A stretch of 64,000 bases of DNA, from the NCBI GenBank assembly GCA_041649155.1, contig JBAZNP010000001.1, positions 173,808-237,807 on the forward strand, written 5' to 3'. Of this stretch, positions 1,105-54,762 are shown piece after piece; within the stretch, counting starts at the first letter, position 1; each line of letters starts with the position of its first letter. The DNA is from Patescibacteria group bacterium. Its GTDB lineage: Bacteria > Patescibacteriota > UBA1384 > XYA2-FULL-43-10 > 1-14-0-10-43-13. The position numbers and the translations under genes are program-made. The notes under the pieces are model-generated. The model had not been told where the DNA came from. It ran no database searches and saw nothing but the letters and a program-made list of their open reading frames with translations.

Positions 1105-3294
1105 TTAAACCAGTACTGCCTGCTCCACTCCGACTATTGGCGCAACCATTTCTTCCGGAGTTGAACACTCAGCCGCTTTATCAACCTTAACCATTTTTCC
1201 ATTTATCATCTTATAAGTTTTTCTGTCCTCAAATTCAGCGCGCTTGCCTTGGTTCCATTGCTGAACCGGTCGAATATAACCAACAATTCGAGAATATACT
1301 TCGGTAGCAGATCCACATTTCTTGCATGTATCAACCCTACCAGCCATGTAACCATGATTTGGACAAACCGAGAAAGTAGGAGTAATTGTGAAGTAAGGAA
1401 GGTGATATTTTTCGCAAATGGTTCTTATGAGAGATTTAATAGATTCGACATCATTAATCTCTTCGCCAATGAATAAGTGAACTACTGTGCCCCCTGTGTA
1501 TTTGACTTGAAGATTGTCCTGCAAATCAAGTACTTCAAAGACATCATCAGTATAATCAACAGGAAGATGTGAGGAATTGGTGTAGTAAGGAGCAGTCTTT
1601 GTTTCCTGATAATTATCTTCGTTAGCGACCATAATGTCGGGATAAAGTTCTTTGTCCAATTTTGCCAATCGGAAAGATGTTCCTTCAGCCGGAGTCGCTT
1701 CAAGGTTGTAATTATTACCTGTTTCGGTTTGATATCCAGCCATTCTTTCGCGCATGAAGTCCAAAACCTCTCTGGCAAACTGTTGGCCTTCAGCAGTGGT
1801 AATATCGCGACCCAAAAGATTTAATACCGCTTCATTCATGCCAAGAAGGCCGATAGTTGAAAAGTGATTGGACCAATACTGCTTGTCGCGCTTTTTAATA
1901 TTTCTCAAATAAAATTTGGTGTAAGGATAAAGTCCGGCATCGGTCATATTTTCAAGAACTTTTCTCTTCATTTCCAAACTCTCTTTTGCTAAATCCATCA
2001 AATAACCAAGATTGTAGAAAAATTCTCTTCTGTCGCGTGATCTGTAACCAAGACGTGGTAAATTAATGGTCACAACCCCAATAGAACCAGTCAATGGATT
2101 AGCGCCAAAGAGTCCGCCGCCGCGCTTGCGAAGTTCACGGTTGTCCAATCTTAGTCGACAACACATACTTCTTGCATCCTCTGGGTTCATATCGGAATTA
2201 ACAAAGTTTGAAAAATATGGAATTCCGTACTTTGCCGTCATTCTCCAGACTGGTTCCAAATCTTTATTGTCCCAGTCAAAATCCTTGGTAATATTGTAGG
2301 TTGGAATCGGGAAAGTAAAAACACGGCCTTTGGCGTCGCCTTCGGCAATTACTTCAGCAAAGACTTCGTTAAACAAATTCATTTCTTTTTGAAAATCTTT
2401 GTAAGTTTCTTTTTGTGGTTTTCCGCCAATGACAACAGGCTGGTCAGCCAATGTCGAAGGGCAAAGCAAATCTAAAGTTACATTGGTAAACGGAGTCTGA
2501 AAACCAACACGAGTTGGAACGTTCATGCCAAACATGAAAGTCTGAAGTTCCTGCTTTACTTCATCACGAGTTAGTTTGTCATAACGAATAAACGGAGCCA
2601 TCAAGGTGTCAAAACTGGAAATTGCCTGTGCGCCGGCAGATTCTCCCTGAAGGGTATAGAAAAAATTAACAAGCTGGCCAAGAGCTGTGCCAAAATGCTT
2701 GGCTGGCTTGCATTCAATTTTACCGGCCGCTCCGGTGAAACCTTCCTGAAGTAAATCCTGCAAATCCCAACCAACACAATAAGTGGAAAGAATATTCAAA
2801 TCATGAATATGCATGTCGCCCTCAGAGTTTGCCCTGCTGATTTCTTCACTATAAATTTTGTGAAGCCAATAGCTCTTAGAAACTTCAGAAGCAATGTAAT
2901 TATTTAGTCCTTGAAGCGAATAGGCCATGTTGGAATTTTCTTTGACCTGCCAGTCAATATTTTCAAGGTATTGATCCATCAAGTCGACTTTTTGGGCTTC
3001 AGCTAGATCACGAAGTTCAGCATGTTTCTGTCGATAAATGATGTAACTTTTTGCAGTGCTTCTGTATTTTGAAGCAAGCAAAATTTCCTCAACAACATCC
3101 TGTATTTCTTCAACAGTAGGGATTCTTCTTCTGATTTTTTCCGGCGCCTTTTCCAAAACTTTTTCGGCAAGCTTGCGAGCAACTTTATCATCAAATTCGT
3201 CGGTTGCTTTACCGGCCTTACCAATAGCAGTAACTAATTTTTCAAAATCAAAATTGACAAGCTTTCCGTCTCGTTTTCTGATTTTTGTGTACAT
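1105..3294 (-). CDS. nrdD: anaerobic ribonucleoside-triphosphate reductase, class III
   Basis: 729 aa. N-terminal ATP-cone (MYTKIRKRDGKLVNFDFEKLVTAIGKAG). C-terminal Zn-ribbon CPNHGY...CKKCG and glycyl-radical region RIVGYIRPV. AGGAGG ribosome-binding site 6 nt upstream of the ATG. Confidence 0.9.
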   Translation of the reverse strand: MYTKIRKRDGKLVNFDFEKLVTAIGKAGKATDEFDDKVARKLAEKVLEKAPEKIRRRIPTVEEIQDVVEEILLASKYRSTAKSYIIYRQKHAELRDLAEAQKVDLMDQYLENIDWQVKENSNMAYSLQGLNNYIASEVSKSYWLHKIYSEEISRANSEGDMHIHDLNILSTYCVGWDLQDLLQEGFTGAAGKIECKPAKHFGTALGQLVNFFYTLQGESAGAQAISSFDTLMAPFIRYDKLTRDEVKQELQTFMFGMNVPTRVGFQTPFTNVTLDLLCPSTLADQPVVIGGKPQKETYKDFQKEMNLFNEVFAEVIAEGDAKGRVFTFPIPTYNITKDFDWDNKDLEPVWRMTAKYGIPYFSNFVNSDMNPEDARSMCCRLRLDNRELRKRGGGLFGANPLTGSIGVVTINLPRLGYRSRDRREFFYNLGYLMDLAKESLEMKRKVLENMTDAGLYPYTKFYLRNIKKRDKQYWSNHFSTIGLLGMNEAVLNLLGRDITTAEGQQFAREVLDFMRERMAGYQTETGNNYNLEATPAEGTSFRLAKLDKELYPDIMVANEDNYQETKTAPYYTNSSHLPVDYTDDVFEVLDLQDNLQVKYTGGTVVHLFIGEEINDVESIKSLIRTICEKYHLPYFTITPTFSVCPNHGYMAGRVDTCKKCGSATEVYSRIVGYIRPVQQWNQGKRAEFEDRKTYKMINGKMVKVDKAAECSTPEEMVAPIVGVEQAVLV

Positions 3295-3308
3295 AACACC
3301 CTCCTGAA

Positions 3309-3430
3309 TTAAGTAGTAAGTTGTAAGTAATAAGTTGTAAGTAATAAGTTGTAAGTAATAAGTTGTAAGTAATAAGTTGTAAGTAATAAGTTGTAAGTAA
3401 TAAGTTGTAAGTAATAAGTTGTAAGTAATT
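3309..3430. repeat. 14-bp tandem repeat array (GTAAGTAATAAGTT, about 8.5 copies) in the nrdD 5' leader
   Basis: Seven perfect units at 3323..3420, plus a degenerate first unit and a partial last unit. Lies between the NrdR boxes and the nrdD ribosome-binding site. Confidence 0.9.
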
Positions 3431-3545
3431 ATTTAAATAGCTGGTTTATAGCTTATTTACTTAATCCTTACTTGCTTAATTCTTGTTCGGTAGTTTCAAT
3501 TATAGCTTTCGCCTTATGTTCGGTCAAATTTACAAAATGGATTAA

Positions 3546-3561
3546 ACACTATATGTAGTAC
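3546..3561. promoter_or_regulatory. NrdR box 1 upstream of nrdDG
   Basis: ACACTATATGTAGTAC matches the 16-bp NrdR-box palindrome consensus acaCwAtATaTwGtgt. Two copies with 33-bp centre spacing, as is typical for tandem NrdR boxes. Confidence 0.55.
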
Positions 3562-3578
3562 AGATCACACACCTAAAA

Positions 3579-3594
3579 ACACTATATGTAGTAC
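3579..3594. promoter_or_regulatory. NrdR box 2 upstream of nrdDG
   Basis: Second identical 16-mer, ACACTATATGTAGTAC. Confidence 0.55.
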
Positions 3595-3798
3595 TATTGT
3601 TGATAATCTTATCAACAAGTAAAATTAACTAATTCCAGACTAAATATTTTAATTATTTAAAATAATATTATTAAAGGCTTTGTAAAAAAATATTAAAACC
3701 CTCAAGGTATAAACTAGTTATTAGCAGGTTAGTAATTAGTTTTTAGAAAAATTAAAAACTCGCCGAAGACGAGTCAATAAGTTAATAAGGCAATATTT

Positions 3799-5343
3799 TT
3801 ACTGTTTACTGACAGTAATTGTAGCTTCGCTTACGTTTCCTGCTGCATCATAGGCTTTGGCCTTAAAAATGTAATCCCCCGAATGTCCAACGAACCATGC
3901 AATCTTTATCCCGATGTAACCGCTATTCTGAGTCGCCAGAAGTTGAGTTCCTGCATAAAATTCCATCTTAACCACGTTCCTATTATCAGTTGCGCGTGCT
4001 TCAAGAATCAATTCTCCACCCGTCCAAGGATGAGGATTATCTGTTGGGTTAAAAATTGTAACAACTGGATTCTCGGTATCAATTTCGTTATTACTAAAAG
4101 TCACAGAGACAGAACTTTCAGCACTTTGGCTGCTATCATAAGCGACTGCTCTCAATGCATAATTGCCATCACTATACGCCCCCGTATTAACTGTTGTTTC
4201 ATATGGGGCAGCTGCATCCTCAGCAATCAGATCATTATTAACATAAAAACCAACCTTTACAACCCCGACATTATCCGAAGCCGAAGCTTTTAGGGTAACT
4301 GATCCCGTAAGTGAAGATCCAATCGATGGCTGCGTAATAGATACAACAGGCGGAGTGGTATCTGAAATTGGCTCAGCGACACTTCCTCCTGAAGCAGATG
4401 TAGCAAGATTGCTTAACCAAGTTTTAGTTGTAACCGACGGATAACCATGGACTTCGCTCATCGCATGATATCCGTAGCCGGAGTAAAAATAAGAATAATC
4501 TTCAGCGATAATTTCAACTTCGCAATTGCCCCATCCGAGAGAATAATCCGTAGCAGTGGCTGCTTTGGAAAGATGACGAGTAGAGTAATAACTGTCAGGA
4601 AATCTGACGCCGGCCGGCAAGTTCAAATCAACCCATTTGTGGTAAAGAGTATAATGATGACCATATTCGTGGGAAAGAACCAGCTTCATGTAATCATAAA
4701 ATTGCGGAGAATCCTTATGATAGTAAACGTTTAAAACTATGTAGCCAAACGCCGAAACAATATCTCCGCTGGAATTAGTTGAATAAGAAGCTTGATATTG
4801 ACCCTCCCAACCAGTATCACCGGCATTCCTGATAGTGATCTGGTACATGTAGCTTACTTCACTACTCCACTTAAGCTGAGAATTTAAATAATCTTTTAAT
4901 GTTTTTTCAAGTGCTGGATAGCTGCCCGTTTCATCGGAATATCTAATACTATAGGGCGAAGCTCCGGTAGGACCAAGACTTGCGATGCTGCTTAACTCCG
5001 ATGAATTTCCACCACCATCAGAAACTAATGTGGTTTTACTCCCGTCAGAATTGGTTGTTGTGTTTCCTGTAATTTTGCTTGAAGCTGAATGCTTAGGAGG
5101 CTCTTGAGCTATAGTGCTGGTTGTTACAGGAGCACTAATCGTAGCTCCTAATTCCGTTGGCATTTGGGTTGTGTCTGTGACTACCGTTTCCTCAATTTTT
5201 GCTGGTTGTCGTCCAAAAGCAGCTTTTACAGAATTCCAAAGACTGCGATCAAAGTAAAAAGTCGCCGAAACAGCCGTTACAATAAATACAAAGGCTATTA
5301 AAAATATGGCAATTTTTTTATCGAATCGATCGGCCCTCAACAT
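3799..5343 (-). CDS. membrane-anchored or secreted HExxH zinc metalloprotease-like protein with C-terminal Ig-like repeats
   Basis: N-terminal TM helix, Ser/Thr-rich linker, HEYGHHYTLYH (HExxH), and two similar C-terminal repeats (VTLKASASDNVGVVKVGFYVNN and TDNRNVVKMEFYAG). Confidence 0.55.
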   Translation of the reverse strand: MLRADRFDKKIAIFLIAFVFIVTAVSATFYFDRSLWNSVKAAFGRQPAKIEETVVTDTTQMPTELGATISAPVTTSTIAQEPPKHSASSKITGNTTTNSDGSKTTLVSDGGGNSSELSSIASLGPTGASPYSIRYSDETGSYPALEKTLKDYLNSQLKWSSEVSYMYQITIRNAGDTGWEGQYQASYSTNSSGDIVSAFGYIVLNVYYHKDSPQFYDYMKLVLSHEYGHHYTLYHKWVDLNLPAGVRFPDSYYSTRHLSKAATATDYSLGWGNCEVEIIAEDYSYFYSGYGYHAMSEVHGYPSVTTKTWLSNLATSASGGSVAEPISDTTPPVVSITQPSIGSSLTGSVTLKASASDNVGVVKVGFYVNNDLIAEDAAAPYETTVNTGAYSDGNYALRAVAYDSSQSAESSVSVTFSNNEIDTENPVVTIFNPTDNPHPWTGGELILEARATDNRNVVKMEFYAGTQLLATQNSGYIGIKIAWFVGHSGDYIFKAKAYDAAGNVSEATITVSKQ

Positions 5344-8137: not shown

Positions 8138-8213
8138 TCCCCGATAGCTCAATTGGCAGAGCGCTTCGCTGTTAACGAAGATGTTACTGGTTCGAGTCCA
8201 GTTCGGGGAGCCA
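8138..8213 (+). tRNA. tRNA-Asn (anticodon GTT)
   Basis: Cloverleaf by eye: acceptor TCCCCGA/TCGGGGA, anticodon arm CTTCG-CTGTTAA-CGAAG, T-arm ACTGG-TTCGAGT-CCAGT, encoded CCA. An extended -10 element (TGATAGAAT) lies about 40 bp upstream. Confidence 0.85.
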
Positions 8214-9674
8214 ATTCACATTTTTACTACAAAGAGCCATTGCATCAAATGGCTTTTTGTAATTCCAGAGTAGTTTTTTACCTCTCAACCTAAGGTTTGA
8301 AAGTACGAAATTGATAAGCTGTCTCTTTTCATCTAGTTCACAACTATCAAATAGCTCTACGGCTCTCTTTGCTAGTTCTATAATATAAAAACTCGTTATT
8401 AGGAACTCTTTATCAGCAGTAGTATGATTGCTCATTTTGCCATTCAAGAACTCTTGTCTGTCCTTCAATTCTAGGAATATTTTGTCATATTGGCCGTCAG
8501 TAATACGACCCTTCAAGTTATCCAAATAAGCTTTTTGGACCATACCATCAATTTCGTCAAATTCCTTTCTGAATTGGCGTATTGATGACTTGTATACATC
8601 TCGTTCAGAATAAAAGGTTTTTTCCATTTCAGTTTTTAGTTCTTCCACAACATCATCAGGCATTACTAAGCCAACAAACGCTTTTCTGACTTGAGACAAT
8701 AGTTCTTCCTCTGTAACCCTTTCAGCACCGCATTTGCCCTTATATTGGTTGCAGATGCAATAATTGATACCTTTAGTTGGGTCTTTACCAACCATACAAT
8801 CACAATGGTCGCATTTAACTAGTCCTCTAAATGCAAACGGCTTGCTTGCATACTTAATTACAGTATGAGATTTTCCCTCTCTTACAGCTTTGCATTTTTC
8901 AAATAGCCATTTTTCAATAAGTGGTTCATACCTATGAGGATGAAGTTTGCCGTTATAAAGCATAACCCCATAATAAAAAGGGTTCTTTAATATTTGGTCC
9001 AGTTGGCTTTTTATTACTGGCTTTCCTGCTTTAGTGCTATTTCTTAAACCCTCGTCTTTCAAAATTTGAACTATCTGCTTGAGGCCATAGTTTCCAGTTG
9101 AGTAGAGTTCAAATGCTTTTTTAACCAAATAACCCCTATTTTTATCAATAACTACTTCTTTCCTTTCATTGATATCAGCATTAAGGTAGCCGATAGGTGC
9201 TTTCTCTGGCCATTCGCCATTTCTTATTTTTTGCTCAATTGACCTTTTTACATCATCAGATAATCTGTTCAAATATTGCTTAGCAAGAAAGACCTTTGCT
9301 TCCCACATAAACATTTGGTTACCAGTAGCTTCTGCATTTATATAGAAACCCTCTTGAACAAAGTGTATTTCCAAGCCATCATTTCTTCTTAATTCGTCAA
9401 TATCAACAGCGTCTCGGAAATTTCTCGTTGCTCTGTCTACATTTTGGCAAAGCAAAACCCTAACATCCTTATTTTTCTTCAGATAGTCGAGTACTTCTTC
9501 AAATTTTCTTCTTATTTTGTGTCCAGCACTTTCAGAGAAAGAAAATTCTTTATCAATCTTAAAATTATTTTTGAGGGCATATTCTTTTAGTCTTCTTATC
9601 TGTGCAGGGAGCGAATGCCCCATTTCTTCCTGCTCTTTTGTCGAAACTCTTGCCAGAATTATAGCTTTTCGCAT
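8184..9674 (-). CDS. large serine recombinase (integrase)
   Basis: N-terminal resolvase domain (ILARVSTKEQ with the catalytic Ser, and VDRATRNFRD), a recombinase domain, and a Cys-rich Zn ribbon (CDHCDC...CICNQYKGKCG). The last 10 codons are encoded by the complement of the tRNA-Asn 3' half. Confidence 0.85.
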   Translation of the reverse strand: MRKAIILARVSTKEQEEMGHSLPAQIRRLKEYALKNNFKIDKEFSFSESAGHKIRRKFEEVLDYLKKNKDVRVLLCQNVDRATRNFRDAVDIDELRRNDGLEIHFVQEGFYINAEATGNQMFMWEAKVFLAKQYLNRLSDDVKRSIEQKIRNGEWPEKAPIGYLNADINERKEVVIDKNRGYLVKKAFELYSTGNYGLKQIVQILKDEGLRNSTKAGKPVIKSQLDQILKNPFYYGVMLYNGKLHPHRYEPLIEKWLFEKCKAVREGKSHTVIKYASKPFAFRGLVKCDHCDCMVGKDPTKGINYCICNQYKGKCGAERVTEEELLSQVRKAFVGLVMPDDVVEELKTEMEKTFYSERDVYKSSIRQFRKEFDEIDGMVQKAYLDNLKGRITDGQYDKIFLELKDRQEFLNGKMSNHTTADKEFLITSFYIIELAKRAVELFDSCELDEKRQLINFVLSNLRLRGKKLLWNYKKPFDAMALCSKNVNWLPELDSNQ

Positions 9675-11316: not shown

Positions 11317-11991
11317 TTATGGTCTCAAATGGTCTTTGTCTTTATTATTGACTCTTACCATTAAGCTCAAATTACCGCAGTTATTGACTAATTCGACAGG
11401 TTTTAATTTTGTTCTAGTCCTTATCTTCTTAATCCTGTCGTTTATAATAATATTATTTAGTGTTTTATCATTTGCGTCAGATTCGCTTAAACCGAGTTCG
11501 CTCAATAGCTCCTGCCTTGAAAGGTAACCGTTATTAAGAACTATCTTATTGAATATCTTGTAAAGATTTTTATCTGTTTGAAATTTGAACGGATTGTCCT
11601 TGATATAACCAATCCCAGAACTAGGACTATACCAGTTTGTAGTTTCTGGCTCGGCAATCTGTTCTTTCTTAGTTTTGCCTTTTCTTAATTGTTCAAGGGT
11701 TAGTCTTCGTATTTCCGCTTCCTCTCTCTGTTTTGTAAAATCAGGGGCAATAGCCGTATAAGTTACTGGCTCAGGGAAATTAAATTGGGGCATCTCTATT
11801 TTTCCAAGGCGTTTCAAGTTTTCTGCAGCTGAGGCTGCCGCATCTTTTACGGCAGACAACATAGTTCCAGAAATAATATCTTTTGGGATTATGCTGTTTG
11901 CTTTTACTAATTCGCCAAGACCTGAAAAATTATCCGAGGATTCGGGAAGATTATCTAGGTCTAAATCAAATTTTTTACTATTTTCGCTCAT
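11317..11991 (-). CDS. hypothetical protein
   Basis: 224-aa ORF on the island with no recognisable motif. Confidence 0.4.
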   Translation of the reverse strand: MSENSKKFDLDLDNLPESSDNFSGLGELVKANSIIPKDIISGTMLSAVKDAAASAAENLKRLGKIEMPQFNFPEPVTYTAIAPDFTKQREEAEIRRLTLEQLRKGKTKKEQIAEPETTNWYSPSSGIGYIKDNPFKFQTDKNLYKIFNKIVLNNGYLSRQELLSELGLSESDANDKTLNNIIINDRIKKIRTRTKLKPVELVNNCGNLSLMVRVNNKDKDHLRP

Positions 11992-21110: not shown

Positions 21111-21286
21111 CTTTATCTTTATACTTATACTTACTTAAACCAACGTAACAAATTAGAACTGATTACTCAATTGTCCATTGTGTTTTTGATAATTTTGAGG
21201 CATAATTCAAATTGTCAGAGCGATCTGATAAACACAATCTAGTTGCACCTAACCCTTACCAGCAATGATAAGGTATGGTGCCAAAT

Positions 21287-21400
21287 CCTCGGTTAAAAAC
21301 AATGACGGTCTAGCGACCGCACTTTTTAACCGAGGTCTGTGCTCGAAAGGGCGCAGGATAGTCCCGAAAGGGGCTGTCGTGGTTCGCTAGGCCATTTTTG
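21287..21400. other. structured intergenic element: 13-bp-stem hairpin plus two GAAA-tetraloop hairpins
   Basis: CCTCGGTTAAAAA..(23 nt)..TTTTTAACCGAGG, then GCTC-GAAA-GGGC and GTCCC-GAAA-GGGGC. Lies about 30 bp upstream of the paralog B2 start. Confidence 0.3.
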
Positions 21401-27908: not shown

Positions 27909-28004
27909 GTTGGCTATTTAGCTACAAGTACTCAAGGCAGCAATTTTAACACTTATTCTTTGCCAGTAGTCATAATTTGTAAGTAATTTTATAAAATTTG
28001 AATT

Positions 28005-49924: not shown

Positions 49925-52156
49925 TTAGTATCTGTCGTTATTATTATTCTCAGGATAATCACTAAAATCATTACCGTTGTTCTGAAAAGCTTGTGAGCCA
50001 GTATCGCTTATCAGAACATCCCTTGGTTTTGCTCCATCTGCCGGCCCGATGACACCTTGCTGCTCTAGAATATCCAAGAGACGAGCAGCTCTAGCATAGC
50101 CTACTCGAAGCCTTCGTTGCAACAAGGAAGCTGAAGCCTTGCCGGCATTAATAACTGTTTCAACGGCATCATTATATAAATCATCCTCGCCAGAACCATC
50201 GCCGCTAAGTGTTCCACCGGATTGAGGAGACCTGAATGACAAGATTGCATCATCATACTCCACCTCACCTTTCTCGCGAAGAAATTTATTTAGCTCTTCT
50301 ATTTCTCCGTCAGAAACAAAACAACCCTGAATACGCTTGGGCTTGTTCACCCCGTTTCCGATAAACAGCATATCACCGTTTCCAAGAAGTTTTTCTGCTC
50401 CGGATAAATCCAAAATTGTTCTGGAGTCCACCTGAGAAGCAGTCGCAAATGCAATTCTTGAAGTAATATTTGCTTTGATCAATCCTGTTAATACGTCCAC
50501 AGATGGTCTTTGGGTGGCGATCACAAGATGCATACCAGTTGCACGAGCCATCTGAGCAAGTCTTACAATTGAACCTTCAACTTCTTTGGCCGATGTTGCC
50601 ATTAAATCAGCTAACTCATCGATGATAATTACAATGTAAGGCAACTTGCCTTCTTCTCCTGGGCTTGAATTATAAGCAACGATATTTCTTTTTCCCTGTT
50701 CAGAGAACATCCTATACCTGCGTTCCATCTCCCAAACCGCCCATTTTAAGGCTGAAACTGTTTTGTCGACTTCAGTTATAACCGGAGTTAAAAGATGTGG
50801 TATTCCGTTATAGTTTGTTAATTCCACCCGTTTTGGATCGACTAAAAGTATTTTTAAGTCGTTTGGTGAGTCGCTAAATAGTAAGGAGCAGATTAGTGAA
50901 TTTATGCATACCGATTTACCAGATCCGGTAGAACCAGCAATTAATAAGTGGGGCATCTTTTCTAAATCAATGGACATCGGGTCGCCGGAAACATCTCTTC
51001 CTAACGCAACAGCTAGTTTACTTTTTAATGCTTTAAATTCTTTTTCCTTCAATATTTCCTTAAGAGTTACTTTGGCTGGTATTTTGTTTGGTATTTCCAC
51101 ACCGACCGAACTCTTTCCCGGAATTGGAGCTTCTAGTCTCAAACTTTTAGCTGATAGAGCCAAAGCTAAATCAGTTTGTCTTGCAATTATCTGGTTTAGT
51201 TTTACGCCTTCCTCCGGTTTGAAAGTATATTGACTGACCGTTGGACCGACATTTACATCACTCATTGAGATTTCGACACCAAAAGTCTTTAAACATTTCT
51301 GGATTATTTCAACATTCTTACTGATATTGCCAGGATTGGGTGCTTCGTCTGAATCTTTTAAAATATCAAGAGAAGGATATTCCCATGTCGTATCCCTTCT
51401 TACATTGGCAAAACTATTTGTATCAACTTCAATTACCTCTGCTTTGGTTTCGTTTTCTCTATCCTTATGTTTTAACCCGTTCATTTTTCTCTTTAATGAC
51501 TCAAAAACAGATACTCTTGCTCCGTTAATATTAACCTTTTCCTTACTGTCTTCGTCTTCATCTGAATGAACAAAACCAAGATATTGAAGCAAAGAAAAAT
51601 CAAATATCATAAGTAGCGCTATGACAATCAAGAATATTGAAAATAGGAATGAAGGAAAAAGCCCTATGCCATTTCTAAGCAGATTTGAAAGATGATAGCC
51701 AACTAGTCCGCCGCCTTTTCCATAATTGGCAAATTCCTGAGCGTTTTCCTGAGCAATAAATAAATGTGCCAGAGCAGGAACCGCAATCACAAACAGAAAT
51801 AACCCGATAAATTTAGAGATCCTATAACTAGACGCTTCTCCTTTTTTAGATTTAGGAGGAAGTATTAGAAGTATGCTGAGATATAAAATGCTAACAGAAA
51901 AGATAGATGATCCAAGAGAGCCGAATAATTTCTTAGCCAAGTCAGTAGTAACTTCTCCCAATACTCCGGCTGAACTAAAAAAACCCAAAATAATAATGAT
52001 TGATAAAAGCAGAATAAGAACACCAGATATGATTCTGCGTGTCTCTCCAGAGAGCCCAAAAGTCCAGTCAAATACAAAGTCGCCCCACTGGTTTTCCCTT
52101 TGATACCAATTTGGCTTTTTTTGTCTGTGCTTTGGAAATTTTCTTTTTCGCCCCAT
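49925..52156 (-). CDS. ftsK: DNA translocase FtsK/SpoIIIE
   Basis: N-terminal TM helices, Walker A GSTGSGKSV, and a C-terminal gamma-domain winged helix. Confidence 0.9.
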   Translation of the reverse strand: MGRKRKFPKHRQKKPNWYQRENQWGDFVFDWTFGLSGETRRIISGVLILLLSIIIILGFFSSAGVLGEVTTDLAKKLFGSLGSSIFSVSILYLSILLILPPKSKKGEASSYRISKFIGLFLFVIAVPALAHLFIAQENAQEFANYGKGGGLVGYHLSNLLRNGIGLFPSFLFSIFLIVIALLMIFDFSLLQYLGFVHSDEDEDSKEKVNINGARVSVFESLKRKMNGLKHKDRENETKAEVIEVDTNSFANVRRDTTWEYPSLDILKDSDEAPNPGNISKNVEIIQKCLKTFGVEISMSDVNVGPTVSQYTFKPEEGVKLNQIIARQTDLALALSAKSLRLEAPIPGKSSVGVEIPNKIPAKVTLKEILKEKEFKALKSKLAVALGRDVSGDPMSIDLEKMPHLLIAGSTGSGKSVCINSLICSLLFSDSPNDLKILLVDPKRVELTNYNGIPHLLTPVITEVDKTVSALKWAVWEMERRYRMFSEQGKRNIVAYNSSPGEEGKLPYIVIIIDELADLMATSAKEVEGSIVRLAQMARATGMHLVIATQRPSVDVLTGLIKANITSRIAFATASQVDSRTILDLSGAEKLLGNGDMLFIGNGVNKPKRIQGCFVSDGEIEELNKFLREKGEVEYDDAILSFRSPQSGGTLSGDGSGEDDLYNDAVETVINAGKASASLLQRRLRVGYARAARLLDILEQQGVIGPADGAKPRDVLISDTGSQAFQNNGNDFSDYPENNNNDRY

Positions 52157-52167
52157 ATCCCTCCGTT

Positions 52168-52527
52168 TTATACTCCTACACTCAACCTTTTTTCGATTTT
52201 AACAATTCGATGTTCGTGATTGTCAAATCTGTCCAAATGACCAACATTCATTTCCGCCAAATCTGAAACTTCTCGGTCTATCTTATCACTCAATTTTCCA
52301 ACTATTTTCTCCTCTGATTCCCTAACAGCGCCAACGATCTCTTTCTTCATTCTTATTTCAGATTTTTCGATCAAAAACTCAATCTTATCCGACATTTTCG
52401 TTTCAGATTTTTCGATCGCAGAATCAATCCGTGCAGACATCTTTGTCTCGGATCTTTCAACAGCAAAATTAATTGATCCATCTACAATCTTTTTAATTTC
52501 TTTTAAATCTTCTCTATCGAGTGCCAT
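52168..52527 (-). CDS. hypothetical coiled-coil repeat protein
   Basis: Tandem EKSETKMS(A/D)(R/K)I(D/E) heptad-like repeats. Confidence 0.4.
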   Translation of the reverse strand: MALDREDLKEIKKIVDGSINFAVERSETKMSARIDSAIEKSETKMSDKIEFLIEKSEIRMKKEIVGAVRESEEKIVGKLSDKIDREVSDLAEMNVGHLDRFDNHEHRIVKIEKRLSVGV

Positions 52528-52809: not shown

Positions 52810-54762
52810 TTACACTTCAATAATTACTGGTATTACCATTGGTCTGCGCTCGGTTTCACGAAAAAGGAATTCGCCCATGTCATCGCGAAGCTTTTGTTTT
52901 GCCAAGCTCCAGTCAGTCTTTGGACCCCTTCGATCAGCGCCGTGCTTTGCGAAGATTTTCTTTATTTCAGCTCTGGACTTATGAACGAGCTGCTCATTTT
53001 CGCGCATGTAAATGAAGCCGCGCGAAATAATATCCGGAGAAGTAGCAACTTCCCCTGTTTCATGATCAACCGTAACGATAATGACAAATATACCGTCCTG
53101 AGCCATTGCTTTTCGATCACGCAGAACGATGTTTCCAACATCGCCAACGCCAAGACCATCAACCATAACATATGAGGCAGGAACTCTTTTATTTGTTACT
53201 TCTCCTCTTCCTTTACCGAATTCAATTACCTGACCATCATCGGCAACAAGACAATGGTCTTCATCAACTATTCCCATATCCTGAGCAATCTGGCAATGCA
53301 GCATCAATCTGTGTCTTTCACCGTGGACCGGCATCAAATACTGAGGTTTAATCAAAGCAAGCATCAACTTAATGTCTTCCTGATTAGCGTGACCGGAAGT
53401 ATGAACATCCATCAATTTTTGATAAACAACTTTTGCTCCAGCTCTAAATAGGTTGTCCATTAAGCTCGAGACACTTCTCTCGTTACCTGGAATTGGCGAA
53501 GATGAAAGAATAACTAGATCGCCTCTCTTAATTTTGATCTGACGATGTTCTCCAAGAGCAATTCTTGTTAAAGCAGCATTATCCTCCCCCTGTGATCCAG
53601 TACATACTATGACCACTTTGTTGTCGGGATATTTACCAATATCTTTAACATCGATAATTGTATCTTTTGGCACAATCAATGCTTCAAGGGAGATAGAAAT
53701 ATCAACCGTTGAAAGCATGCTTCTTCCAACAAAAGCAACTTTTCGATGTAGTTTTTCTGCCGTATTTAGAACCTGCTGAATTCTGGAAATCAAAGTTGAG
53801 AAAGTTGAGATGATTAATCTGTTGTTTGCTCTTTCCATAATTTTGAAAAGAGAGTCTTCGATTTCTTTTTCTGAGATTGAGTTTCCCGGTCGTTCGATAT
53901 TTGTAGAATCGGAAAGCAGAAGCAATGGCTTTCTTGATCCCAGCATTGCTAATGCCGAAAAATCAGCTGGTCTTCCATCGGCTGGTGTATGATCGAACTT
54001 CCAGTCCCCTGTTGCAACTAATAATCCTTCTGGTGTTTCGATGGCAAAACCCATTGTTTGAGGAATACTGTGAGTCAGACGAAAAGAGGTAACTTTAAAG
54101 CAACCCAATTGAAGAGTGGTCTCGCCGGGGTTTATTACTTCCAACCGAGCACCTCTGTCCAAGCCAAACTCCTCAAGTTTACCTTTAATTAACCCCAATG
54201 ATAGAGGCGATGAGTATATGATCGGAGAACCGATTTTCTCAAAAACGTAAGGTATGGCACCAATGTGATCAAGGTGACCATGTGTAATTAAAAGACCTTT
54301 AATTTTTCTTTTATTTTGTTCCAGATATGAAACGTCAGGGATTACATAATCCACCCCTGGCATACTTTCGTCCGGAAACATAAAGCCCATATCTATTACA
54401 ATGATGTCATCTTTATATTCAATGACTGTACAGTTTTTTCCACCAGTTTCTTCAACACCGCCCAAAGGGATGATGCGAAGCTTTGGCTCATGAAACATCT
54501 TCGATGTATTATTTGTATCAATTTGTTGCGCAGTATAGCGAGGCTCTTCATGCCTCGTTGGCTGCTGTTTAAAAGGCTGACTTCGATATTTGTTATAATT
54601 CGAGGTTTTCTTTTCGCCTTTATCTTTAGACACTGAATCTAAAAACTTATTCCCGACAAGACTAGTCTTAGTTGGTGATTTTCGATTCTGTGTATTTATT
54701 TCTTTTTTTTCTAAATTATTTTTTTCTTCTCCGCCAGAGGCGGACTTTATTTCATTTTGCAT
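52810..54762 (-). CDS. rnj: ribonuclease J (metallo-beta-lactamase / beta-CASP)
   Basis: LLITHGHLDHIGAIPY motif, beta-CASP domain, and a long low-complexity N-terminal extension. Confidence 0.85.
   Translation of the reverse strand: MQNEIKSASGGEEKNNLEKKEINTQNRKSPTKTSLVGNKFLDSVSKDKGEKKTSNYNKYRSQPFKQQPTRHEEPRYTAQQIDTNNTSKMFHEPKLRIIPLGGVEETGGKNCTVIEYKDDIIVIDMGFMFPDESMPGVDYVIPDVSYLEQNKRKIKGLLITHGHLDHIGAIPYVFEKIGSPIIYSSPLSLGLIKGKLEEFGLDRGARLEVINPGETTLQLGCFKVTSFRLTHSIPQTMGFAIETPEGLLVATGDWKFDHTPADGRPADFSALAMLGSRKPLLLLSDSTNIERPGNSISEKEIEDSLFKIMERANNRLIISTFSTLISRIQQVLNTAEKLHRKVAFVGRSMLSTVDISISLEALIVPKDTIIDVKDIGKYPDNKVVIVCTGSQGEDNAALTRIALGEHRQIKIKRGDLVILSSSPIPGNERSVSSLMDNLFRAGAKVVYQKLMDVHTSGHANQEDIKLMLALIKPQYLMPVHGERHRLMLHCQIAQDMGIVDEDHCLVADDGQVIEFGKGRGEVTNKRVPASYVMVDGLGVGDVGNIVLRDRKAMAQDGIFVIIVTVDHETGEVATSPDIISRGFIYMRENEQLVHKSRAEIKKIFAKHGADRRGPKTDWSLAKQKLRDDMGEFLFRETERRPMVIPVIIEV

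Follow-up and report, generated by a model that had tools for sequence, protein, structure and literature searches.

A conserved NrdR operator and a probably slippage-derived tandem repeat in the predicted nrdD leader of a Patescibacteria bacterium

Introduction

Does a perfect tandem repeat placed between an operator and a ribosome-binding site control the gene behind it, or is it a by-product of DNA replication? The question is raised by the region upstream of nrdD in a genome of the Patescibacteria group, analysed here within a window of 64 kb, i.e. the whole stretch of DNA under study, to which all positions refer. The initial annotation recorded two NrdR-box-like palindromes followed by an array of 14-bp units, and considered for the array a role as a contingency element or spacer of variable copy number, or as a binding array for an RNA- or DNA-binding factor. 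An NrdR operator is expected upstream of nrdDG. The array is the unexpected part: should its unit number tune nrdD expression, dNTP supply would be subject to a mutational rheostat, and this in a genome of episymbiont type that has very few regulators. The main yield of the present analysis is that the array is best read as a young simple-sequence repeat, which tidies up the finding.

Results

Architecture of the region upstream of nrdD

The features described below lie on the minus strand, apart from a palindrome to which no strand is assigned. The nrdD gene (1105-3294) encodes a class III (anaerobic) ribonucleoside-triphosphate reductase of 729 amino acids with an N-terminal ATP-cone (Pfam NRDD E = 1.2e-199, ATP-cone E = 2e-21), in agreement with the NCBI annotation as ribonucleoside triphosphate reductase of a Patescibacteria group bacterium, and is the only RNR gene seen in the window. 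Downstream follows a gene for an nrdG-like radical-SAM activase (305-1081; Pfam Radical_SAM and Fer4_12), whose longest open reading frame starts at 1168 and for which the gene call of 258 amino acids was taken from L001, a 603-kb public ENA contig of the same strain. In the species-level genome collection, the best matches to NrdD come from CPR MAGs, with identities of 91%, 88%, 80% and lower.

The intergenic region upstream of nrdD measures 504 bp and contains, in the order of transcription, a terminator-like hairpin, an AT-rich stretch, a palindrome, NrdR boxes 1 and 2, a promoter, a purine-rich segment, a short linker, the array, the Shine-Dalgarno sequence AGGAGGG and the ATG. The hairpin (3757-3775), an 8-pair stem followed by a T-run (0.1 expected in shuffles), resembles an intrinsic terminator of the upstream Big_7 (Ig-domain) gene and would insulate the nrdD promoter region from read-through.

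The predicted sigma-70-type promoter, TTGACC-17-TATAAT (3499-3527), agrees with the consensus at 11/12 positions and places the transcription start near 3492, giving a leader of about 198 nt. It is the only strong promoter match and is located upstream of the array; a promoter scan returned no promoter-like site within or after the array. Conservation in L003-L005, L007-L009, L012 and L013 covers both hexamers, a large part of the spacer (TTGACCGAACA...CGAA...TAnAAT) and the initial bases of the predicted transcript. At the other end of the leader, the Shine-Dalgarno sequence (3299-3305) lies 4 nt upstream of the ATG and 4 nt after the end of the array, and its GGAGGG is invariant across the alignment of relatives. 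The array had been placed between the boxes and an AGGAGG ribosome-binding site, which is correct (3310-3429 versus 3305-3299). Its further assignment to the 5' UTR is a prediction that the sequence supports well, since the sole strong, conserved promoter sits upstream of the array and none occurs within or after it; with a predicted promoter at 3527-3499 that is conserved in at least eight relatives, the array would be transcribed as part of the nrdD leader.

The paired boxes form a conserved predicted NrdR operator

The 16-bp palindrome ACACTATATGTAGTAC (as read on the plus strand) has exactly two exact matches in the 64-kb window, the distal box 1 (3579-3594) and its exact duplicate, the proximal box 2 (3546-3561), and a third box is absent from the window even when 3 mismatches are allowed (0.23 expected). 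The boxes are situated 252-300 bp upstream of the nrdD ATG, box 2 ending 18 bp upstream of the -35 hexamer, and their starts are 33 bp apart. The description in the initial annotation, two identical boxes 33 bp apart at about 250 bp upstream of nrdD, is thus accurate and needs to be completed only by the strand. Both boxes match the published NrdR consensus acaCwAtATaTwGtgt (Rodionov and Gelfand; Rozman Grinberg et al., PMC9110341, PMC12051234) at 13/16 positions, all core positions included, with box 1 fitting the core at C4, A6, A8, T9, T11 and G13.

Each 16-mer upstream of nrdD in related loci was scored against the same consensus. A 33-bp box pair is present upstream of nrdD in 11 close relatives (L003, L004, L006-L013 and L015), the distal box being conserved in L003-L015, and more distant Patescibacteria possess 33-bp pairs upstream of nrdR-nrdD operons (12 NrdR-encoding loci). 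This spacing accounts for 24 of the 36 box pairs found among the related loci; in loci from other phyla the boxes are 31-32 bp apart. NrdR operators follow a rule of two boxes separated by a spacer of 14-17 bp or 24-27 bp, the former class being bound best by four different NrdR proteins (PMC12051234), and the 33 bp from start to start correspond to a spacer of 17 bp, inside the 14-17 bp class. The match to the consensus core together with the conservation of the pair upstream of nrdD in the 11 close relatives supports the earlier NrdR reading, and the paired boxes are well supported, on sequence grounds, as a conserved and ordinary predicted NrdR operator. No gene for NrdR itself was detected by a regular-expression scan of all six frames of the window, and the additional flank provided by L001 likewise lacks an NrdR-like open reading frame. 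In the phylum nrdR is common, and at more than 20 other Patescibacteria loci it immediately precedes nrdD.

As in known NrdR operators, two partially palindromic 16-bp boxes with the consensus core occupy the promoter region of an nrd operon. Both promoter hexamers are downstream of box 2, as in S. pneumoniae nrdHEF, and the leader is long, as in L. monocytogenes nrdAB (PMC12051234). The commonest spacer of known operators is 15-16 bp, whereas the 17 bp observed here are the usual value in the Patescibacteria loci examined. The data extend the operator to Patescibacteria, where a spacer of 17 bp is typical of the clade. A perfect palindrome, TTGTTGATAA-ga-TTATCAACAA (3597-3618), adjoins box 1, and a half-site, TGTTGATAA, begins 21-25 bp upstream of box 1 in 11/11 close relatives with the box pair.

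A single G-free array of paired heptads

The array (3310-3429) is by far the strongest tandem repeat in the window according to Tandem Repeats Finder (8.6 copies, 99% matches, score 233). In the register used by the initial annotation, GTAAGTAATAAGTT, seven exact copies are present at 3323-3420 (0.04 expected by chance), confirming the perfect 14-bp periodicity that had been described, and in mRNA sense the unit TTACTTACAACTTA occurs in eight exact copies. This unit is composed of two heptads, TTACTTA and CAACTTA, with the common core ACTTA. The mRNA lacks any G from 3440 to 3306, that is for 135 nt directly 5' of the Shine-Dalgarno sequence. Without G, the array provides no ATG, GTG or TTG start codon in mRNA sense, which dismisses an upstream open reading frame or an N-terminal extension; NrdD begins with the usual ATP-cone start, and the array is free of stop codons as well.

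Several further candidates were rejected. A riboswitch or other known leader RNA found no Rfam match at E <= 1 in 3200-3800, and at gathering score Rfam reported only LOOT and tRNAs in the whole window. A Rho-utilisation site was considered in view of the C-containing, G-free RNA, but every cytosine follows an A and there are no YC dimers. A classical phase-variation locus is not compatible with the position of the array, which falls between the -10 hexamer and the Shine-Dalgarno sequence rather than in the -35/-10 spacer or in a reading frame.

The array is the only one of its kind in the 64 kb. A scan for runs of nnACTTA heptads detected no other such array in the rest of the window, the sole match outside the array with one mismatch is a lone unit at 27973, and matches with three mismatches number nine, compared with about 12 expected in the window, one of them being an opposite-sense segment of the leader (3457-3470). 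These observations bear on the proposal that the repeats act at the DNA level, as iterons or as a binding array for a nucleoid or regulator protein that affects replication or transcription, a proposal which is suggested by the regular direct repeats and by a DnaA-box-like palindrome about 170 bp away. We consider it extremely improbable, as a period of 14 bp (7 bp) does not keep phase with the DNA helix and the array lies downstream of the promoter, is absent from relatives and is without a second array in the window. The more specific reading as a replication origin with iterons was rejected on gene context and GC skew, there being no replication gene nearby and the cumulative skew being monotonic across the window.

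The array is lineage-specific and appears young

When the leaders are aligned, the operator, the promoter and the purine-rich segment can be matched to those of L003, L004 and L005, but the array cannot. In L003, the relative whose NrdD is 91% identical, the position of the array is taken by a single unit-like sequence, CTACTTACTATTTA, immediately before the Shine-Dalgarno sequence, and no ACTTA-heptad array was detected in the 80 related nrdD loci scanned. The array displays two hallmarks of long simple-sequence repeats or VNTRs, namely near-identical copies arranged head to tail and lineage-specific presence, the orthologous site of close relatives being without it. The sequence comparison suggests a recent, lineage-specific expansion, the young age being indicated by eight exact copies and 99% overall identity, and the array would have grown in place, by replication slippage, from one pre-existing unit.

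A length comparison within the strain is offered by L001, in which 9.3 kb contain one substitution relative to the window. Its array comprises 2.6 copies compared to 8.6 in the window, a difference of exactly six units (84 bp), and the period-14 run spans 29 nt in L001 versus 113 nt in the window. Taken at face value, the short same-strain array would suggest that the copy number in the window is inflated, or that the array has been misreconstructed by the assembler. Against such an artefact, the length found in L001 is itself that of an assembly collapse: a 113-nt repeat assembled without reuse of k-mers can yield runs of 1, 15, 29, 43 nt and so on, 29 nt being the shortest feasible for k = 16-29. 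Because 29 nt is the outcome of an iterative small-k de Bruijn assembler collapsing the loop, the short allele of L001 looks like a product of collapse and not like a true short allele. In general, the collapse of a tandem repeat is a far commoner assembly error than its expansion. In addition, the same strain is represented in an independent run, SRR8542065, by two Logan contigs that break off within the array, approaching it from opposite sides and with periodic tails of 30 nt (k-1, k = 31). Such ends presuppose periodic runs of about 45 nt or more among the reads, so that the array in that sample is longer than in L001. An artefactual copy number in the window is thus very improbable. As for natural variation, NrdD is alone in its 90% cluster, and searches with the exact protein sequences of NrdD and of Big_7, encoded upstream, retrieved one strain on record.

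Pairing of the array with a purine-rich leader segment

Between promoter and array, the leader contains the purine-rich segment CAAGAATTAAGCAAGTAAGGATTAAGTAAATAAGC (3451-3485), a degenerate repeat of 7-8 nt in opposite sense to the array (Tandem Repeats Finder: 15-bp unit, 2.2 copies, 3452-3484), which agrees with L003 at 33/35 bases. Its complement is found in the last units of the array, at the 3' end, and the duplex of -18.3 kcal/mol (z = -4.6) is specific: 0 of 1000 shuffled arms were as good, and five control segments from the same intergenic region remained at z of about 0.

This complementarity raises an alternative with a precedent in H. influenzae. The 5' UTR of hmw1A contains (ATCTTTC)n repeats, which form one side of a hairpin opposite a purine-rich arm; the hairpin undergoes RNase III processing, and hmw expression falls as the 5'-UTR repeat lengthens (PMC12721329). 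By analogy, the array would pair with the purine-rich segment into a long hairpin beside the ribosome-binding site, mRNA stability or translation would be governed either by the double-strand-specific RNase III or by the hairpin as such, and slippage in unit number would give heritable, graded levels of the class III reductase. Were this true, a reduced-genome CPR bacterium would possess a heritable expression rheostat on a core DNA-precursor enzyme and not on a surface antigen. Besides the specific pairing, this model is in agreement with the heptamer-based nature of the repeat, its location in the predicted 5' UTR, the conservation of the 5' arm in L003 and an ensemble in which, from the first unit onwards, about 72% of the arm nucleotides pair with the array. 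The likeness to hmw1A/hmw2A extends to the long 5' UTR (predicted here), to the purine-rich character of the other arm and to the additional repeats that reach beyond the paired part (PMC12721329). In hmw, however, the repeats constitute the 5' arm, whereas they are the 3' arm here, with a heptad pair (14 bp) as the unit, and the stem of the present leader is AU-rich, interrupted and much weaker (about -18 to -22 kcal/mol).

Folding of leaders rebuilt in silico with 0-16 units argues against a dependence on copy number. At zero units, the paired fraction of the arm is 0.33; the first unit raises its pairing with the array to about 0.7, a level that stays flat as more units are added, and the Shine-Dalgarno sequence keeps an unpaired probability of 0.65 and an opening energy of 4.99 kcal/mol from 1 to 16 units. 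The model predicts that extra units only enlarge the loop, with hairpin stability and Shine-Dalgarno accessibility being independent of their number, within the bounds of equilibrium folding, which cannot capture RNase processing, protein binding or kinetic effects. The leader with 8 units does not fold better than its shuffles (z = -1.15), while that with 2.6 units is moderately better (z about -2.8). Nor does the structure recur in relatives: the arm of L003, which has no array, lacks a significant partner (z = -1.0), and no common structure emerged from nine orthologous leaders, among which only the window-type leader and that of L008 reach z of about -2.6 to -2.7. Furthermore, nrdD is a housekeeping gene and not a surface or contingency gene, and the sole shorter allele, that of L001, has the length of an assembly collapse. 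Overall, we regard an hmw-like rheostat as unlikely. The arm-array complementarity and the fold of the short-array leader, in an architecture that resembles hmw, nevertheless speak against strict neutrality of the array.

Recurrence of the unit at unrelated loci

The same unit was sought elsewhere by scanning a metagenome collection for two exact copies (28 nt). The 28-mer is present in 34 metagenome contigs, so that the 14-mer, for which the initial annotation had proposed such a search, is not confined to this locus; viral contigs gave no match to the 28-mer. None of the 34 contigs represents an nrdD locus, their flanks are unrelated to nrdD, and nearly all of the flanks differ from each other, with three contig pairs sharing theirs. 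GC contents range from 31 to 50%, starts are not preceded by a Shine-Dalgarno sequence, and several contigs have TIGR02436 four-helix-bundle genes beside the arrays. One contig was verified taxonomically: L085 encodes an RNase Y that is 97% identical to that of Daejeonella (Sphingobacteriaceae, Bacteroidota). The remaining contigs presumably also belong to Bacteroidota, judged by the absence of Shine-Dalgarno sequences and the TIGR02436 genes.

The arrays of these contigs are mixtures of heptads (TTACTTA, CAACTTA, TAACTTA, CTACTTA and similar), often fill the whole gap between two genes, in many cases begin at the stop codon of the preceding gene, and occur in both orientations. An ACTTA-sense array directly precedes a start codon in L084, L089, L090, L091, L103, L110 and L113, and a TAAGT-sense array does so in L087, L088, L094, L098, L114 and L115. 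Nothing points to the dedicated binding factor envisaged in the initial annotation, given the lack of another array in the window and the two orientations at unrelated loci. Instead, the pattern of recurrence points to a generic slippage-prone class of repeats rather than to a specific regulator site, as far as can be judged from sequence. Since the CPR array would have grown from a resident unit, we infer that the unit shared by this locus and the other contigs reflects convergence within a slippage-prone sequence class and not transfer.

Such a class has been described. According to the summary in PMC4679880, no unit is commoner among the long simple-sequence repeats of prokaryotes than the heptanucleotide, and a heptamer array found in one strain can be missing from the corresponding intergenic region of its close relatives (PMC4679880). 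The long simple-sequence repeats or VNTRs of Mrazek et al. 2007, as summarised in PMC4679880, likewise consist of near-perfect, heptanucleotide-based copies in non-coding DNA with a patchy phylogenetic distribution, with slippage as the accepted origin, and no difference of substance separates them from the present array. The array thereby finds its place as a member of the known heptamer-based class of long simple-sequence repeats, and what sets it apart is that an essential gene of a reduced CPR genome carries it in the predicted leader.

The closest parallel in sequence is formed by the TAACTGA repeats of Beggiatoaceae, Cyanobacteria and some Bacteroidetes (MacGregor 2015, PMC4679880), which are likewise intergenic heptamers in forward orientation near the start, are likewise missing from the equivalent intergenic region of close relatives and often break assemblies (PMC4679880). 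They differ by 1-2 bases from the heptads TTACTTA and CAACTTA (and from TAACTTA of the other contigs); moreover, a Shine-Dalgarno sequence follows the array here, the phylum is a different one, and dozens to hundreds of sets per genome (PMC4679880) contrast with one locus in 64 kb. With a unit other than TAACTGA and one array instead of many sets, assignment to the TAACTGA type was rejected.

For the TAACTGA repeats upstream of start codons, a function as a platform has been proposed (PMC4679880), and the G-free ACUUA heptads could similarly serve as a single-stranded RNA platform, i.e. as a ribosome standby or enhancer site or as a landing pad for S1, a cold-shock protein or an RRM-type protein. 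The G-free stretch of 135 nt that leads up to the Shine-Dalgarno sequence is compatible with such a function, as are the distance of 1-2 bases from TAACTGA in the forward orientation next to the start seen in Beggiatoaceae and Flexibacter (PMC4679880), the ACTTA-sense arrays that abut start codons in the seven contigs named above, and an RRM-domain gene about 3.4 kb beyond nrdG on L001. However, one array in 64 kb does not amount to a regulon-like set, nrdD is already equipped with a strong Shine-Dalgarno sequence and its close relatives do without the array, and about as many arrays elsewhere are in opposite sense before starts or directly after stop codons. These mixed orientations argue against a strand-specific RNA site and make a strand-specific protein platform less likely than an hmw-like role; we judge the platform to be quite improbable.

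Discussion

Based on the anatomy of the locus, the comparison with relatives and the recurrence of the unit, we propose that the region upstream of nrdD consists of two layers, a conserved NrdR operator and a young, slippage-derived leader repeat that is nearly neutral, an account which we hold to be likely on balance. The ancestral layer would be the tandem operator just upstream of the strong sigma-70-type promoter, where, as in characterised NrdR systems, a dATP/ATP-loaded NrdR tetramer would bind and repress nrdDG. The young layer would have arisen when a single resident unit, as preserved in CTACTTACTATTTA of the 91% relative, was amplified to about 8.6 copies by replication slippage, adding some 110 nt of presumably unstructured spacer to the leader. 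In the proposed arrangement the repeat lies outside the promoter, the operator and the Shine-Dalgarno sequence, and it would be tolerated because of this position and because the transcribed strand contains no G, start codon or stop codon. The effect on nrdD expression would most likely be none or small, and the array is expected to be unstable in length. Near-neutrality is favoured because the array is without conservation, without a predicted effect of copy number and without a conserved RNA element. The array is probably a by-product of slippage and not a dedicated control element.

A wider proposal combines the hmw-like model with the recurrence of the unit. Opposite-sense heptads, a loop and an ACTTA array follow each other in about one third of the unrelated contigs, and the window has the same layout, which hints that such repeats may not be purely neutral. 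On this proposal, the array and the conserved purine-rich segment would form a slippage-tunable, hmw-like hairpin that sets the level of the class III RNR and would exemplify a wider class of '(TAAGTnn)n - loop - (nnACTTA)n' hairpin repeats, as yet undescribed and shared with Bacteroidota. We consider this combination decidedly unlikely; the preferred reading remains that of a nearly neutral repeat.

As an observation in its own right, the heptad pair recurs in intergenic regions of verified or presumed Bacteroidota, where it supplies the arms of long hairpins and in many places occupies exactly the space from one gene to the next. In the unrelated contigs, the TAAGT core is ten-fold enriched in the 100 nt 5' of ACTTA arrays, with 1.32 occurrences per 100 nt on the 5' side compared to 0.10 on the 3' side and 0.12 in the background. 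Long significant hairpins are found at the unrelated loci L092 (z = -8.4), L091 (z = -7.3), L086 (z = -4.7) and L100 (z = -3.9), the last of which directly follows a tRNA gene.

Conserved elements upstream of nrdD

Conservation of the promoter of nrdD, the class III ribonucleotide reductase gene, extends past the promoter hexamers and takes the form TTGACCGAACA-n5-CGAA-n3-TAnAAT (positions 3485-3527 of the window), shared with the related nrdD loci L003-L005, L007-L009, L012 and L013. In the same loci and in the window, the conserved TAnAAT is followed downstream by TTACCGAA at the predicted nrdD start. The window also contains two copies of ACCGAACA, 33 bp apart. These features suggest either that a further site overlaps the promoter or that the first part of the transcript is under sequence constraint.

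Among the related nrdD loci compared (L003-L082), 24 of the 36 NrdR box pairs in Patescibacteria have a start-to-start distance of 33 bp, i.e. a 17-bp spacer; box pairs in the Smithellaceae and Chlamydiae loci are spaced at 31 bp. In more than 20 Patescibacteria loci of this set, nrdR itself lies directly upstream of nrdD.

Immediately upstream of the distal NrdR box (box 1, 3579-3594), a perfect palindrome, TTGTTGATAA-ga-TTATCAACAA, is located at 3597-3618. In all close relatives that have the box pair (11/11), box 1 is preceded by the half-site TGTTGATAA, whose first base lies 21-25 bp upstream of it; the half-site was not found before box 1 in the distant Patescibacteria among the related nrdD loci compared. 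The palindrome does not have canonical -35/-10 geometry, but could represent a second regulator site. Its half-site agrees at 8 of 9 positions with the DnaA box, TTATCCACA.

Tandem repeats in nrdD leaders and in unrelated contigs

Short, low-copy tandem repeats, with units that differ between loci, are present in the nrdD leaders of L003, L007, L008, L010, L012 and L014, 100-140 nt before nrdD, as exemplified by AGTAAATA in 4.5 copies in L008 and TACGAAAA in 4 copies in L014. The leader region 3' of the conserved nrdD promoter seems to be generally repeat-prone across related CPR genomes.

The mRNA-sense repeat class of the 14-bp array in the window (3310-3429), (nnACTTA)n, was also followed in 34 metagenome contigs (L083-L116) with flanks unrelated to nrdD. 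Here, such arrays commonly span an intergenic gap from end to end, in one orientation or the other. On the 5' side they are often accompanied by an opposite-sense (TAAGTnn)n partner, the two together yielding long predicted hairpins with z down to -8.4. In four of the 34 contigs (L084, L098/L104 and L114), genes of the TIGR02436 four-helix-bundle family ('23S rRNA intervening sequence') lie 0-15 nt from the heptad arrays, and small cassette-like genes of this family may be associated with heptad repeats. A tRNA 3' end directly precedes the array hairpin in L100, the (nnACTTA)n array of L110 has beside it another heptad array with a different unit, (AAAGCTG)n, and the arrays of L089 and L091 shade into CTACTAA-type heptads.

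Other features of the window and its neighborhood

A large serine recombinase ORF with Resolvase and Recombinase domains (8184-9674, minus strand) extends with its 3' end into a tRNA-Asn gene (8138-8213, plus strand), and an integrated element may have its boundary here. The tRNA gene separates the nrdDG genes from the recombinase ORF. A LOOT RNA motif was detected at 21246-21378 on the plus strand (69.2 bits versus a gathering score of 46.4), with an ORF starting at 21339 just downstream. A 45-bp unit is repeated 2.3 times at 52356-52458 (75% matches, score 108), within a 650-bp gap between an ORF ending at 52156 and another starting at 52810. RRM_1-type single-strand RNA-binding proteins are uncommon in bacteria; a gene for a 104-aa RRM_1-domain protein is found outside the window, at 11583-11897 of the same-strain ENA contig L001, approximately 3.4 kb beyond nrdG.
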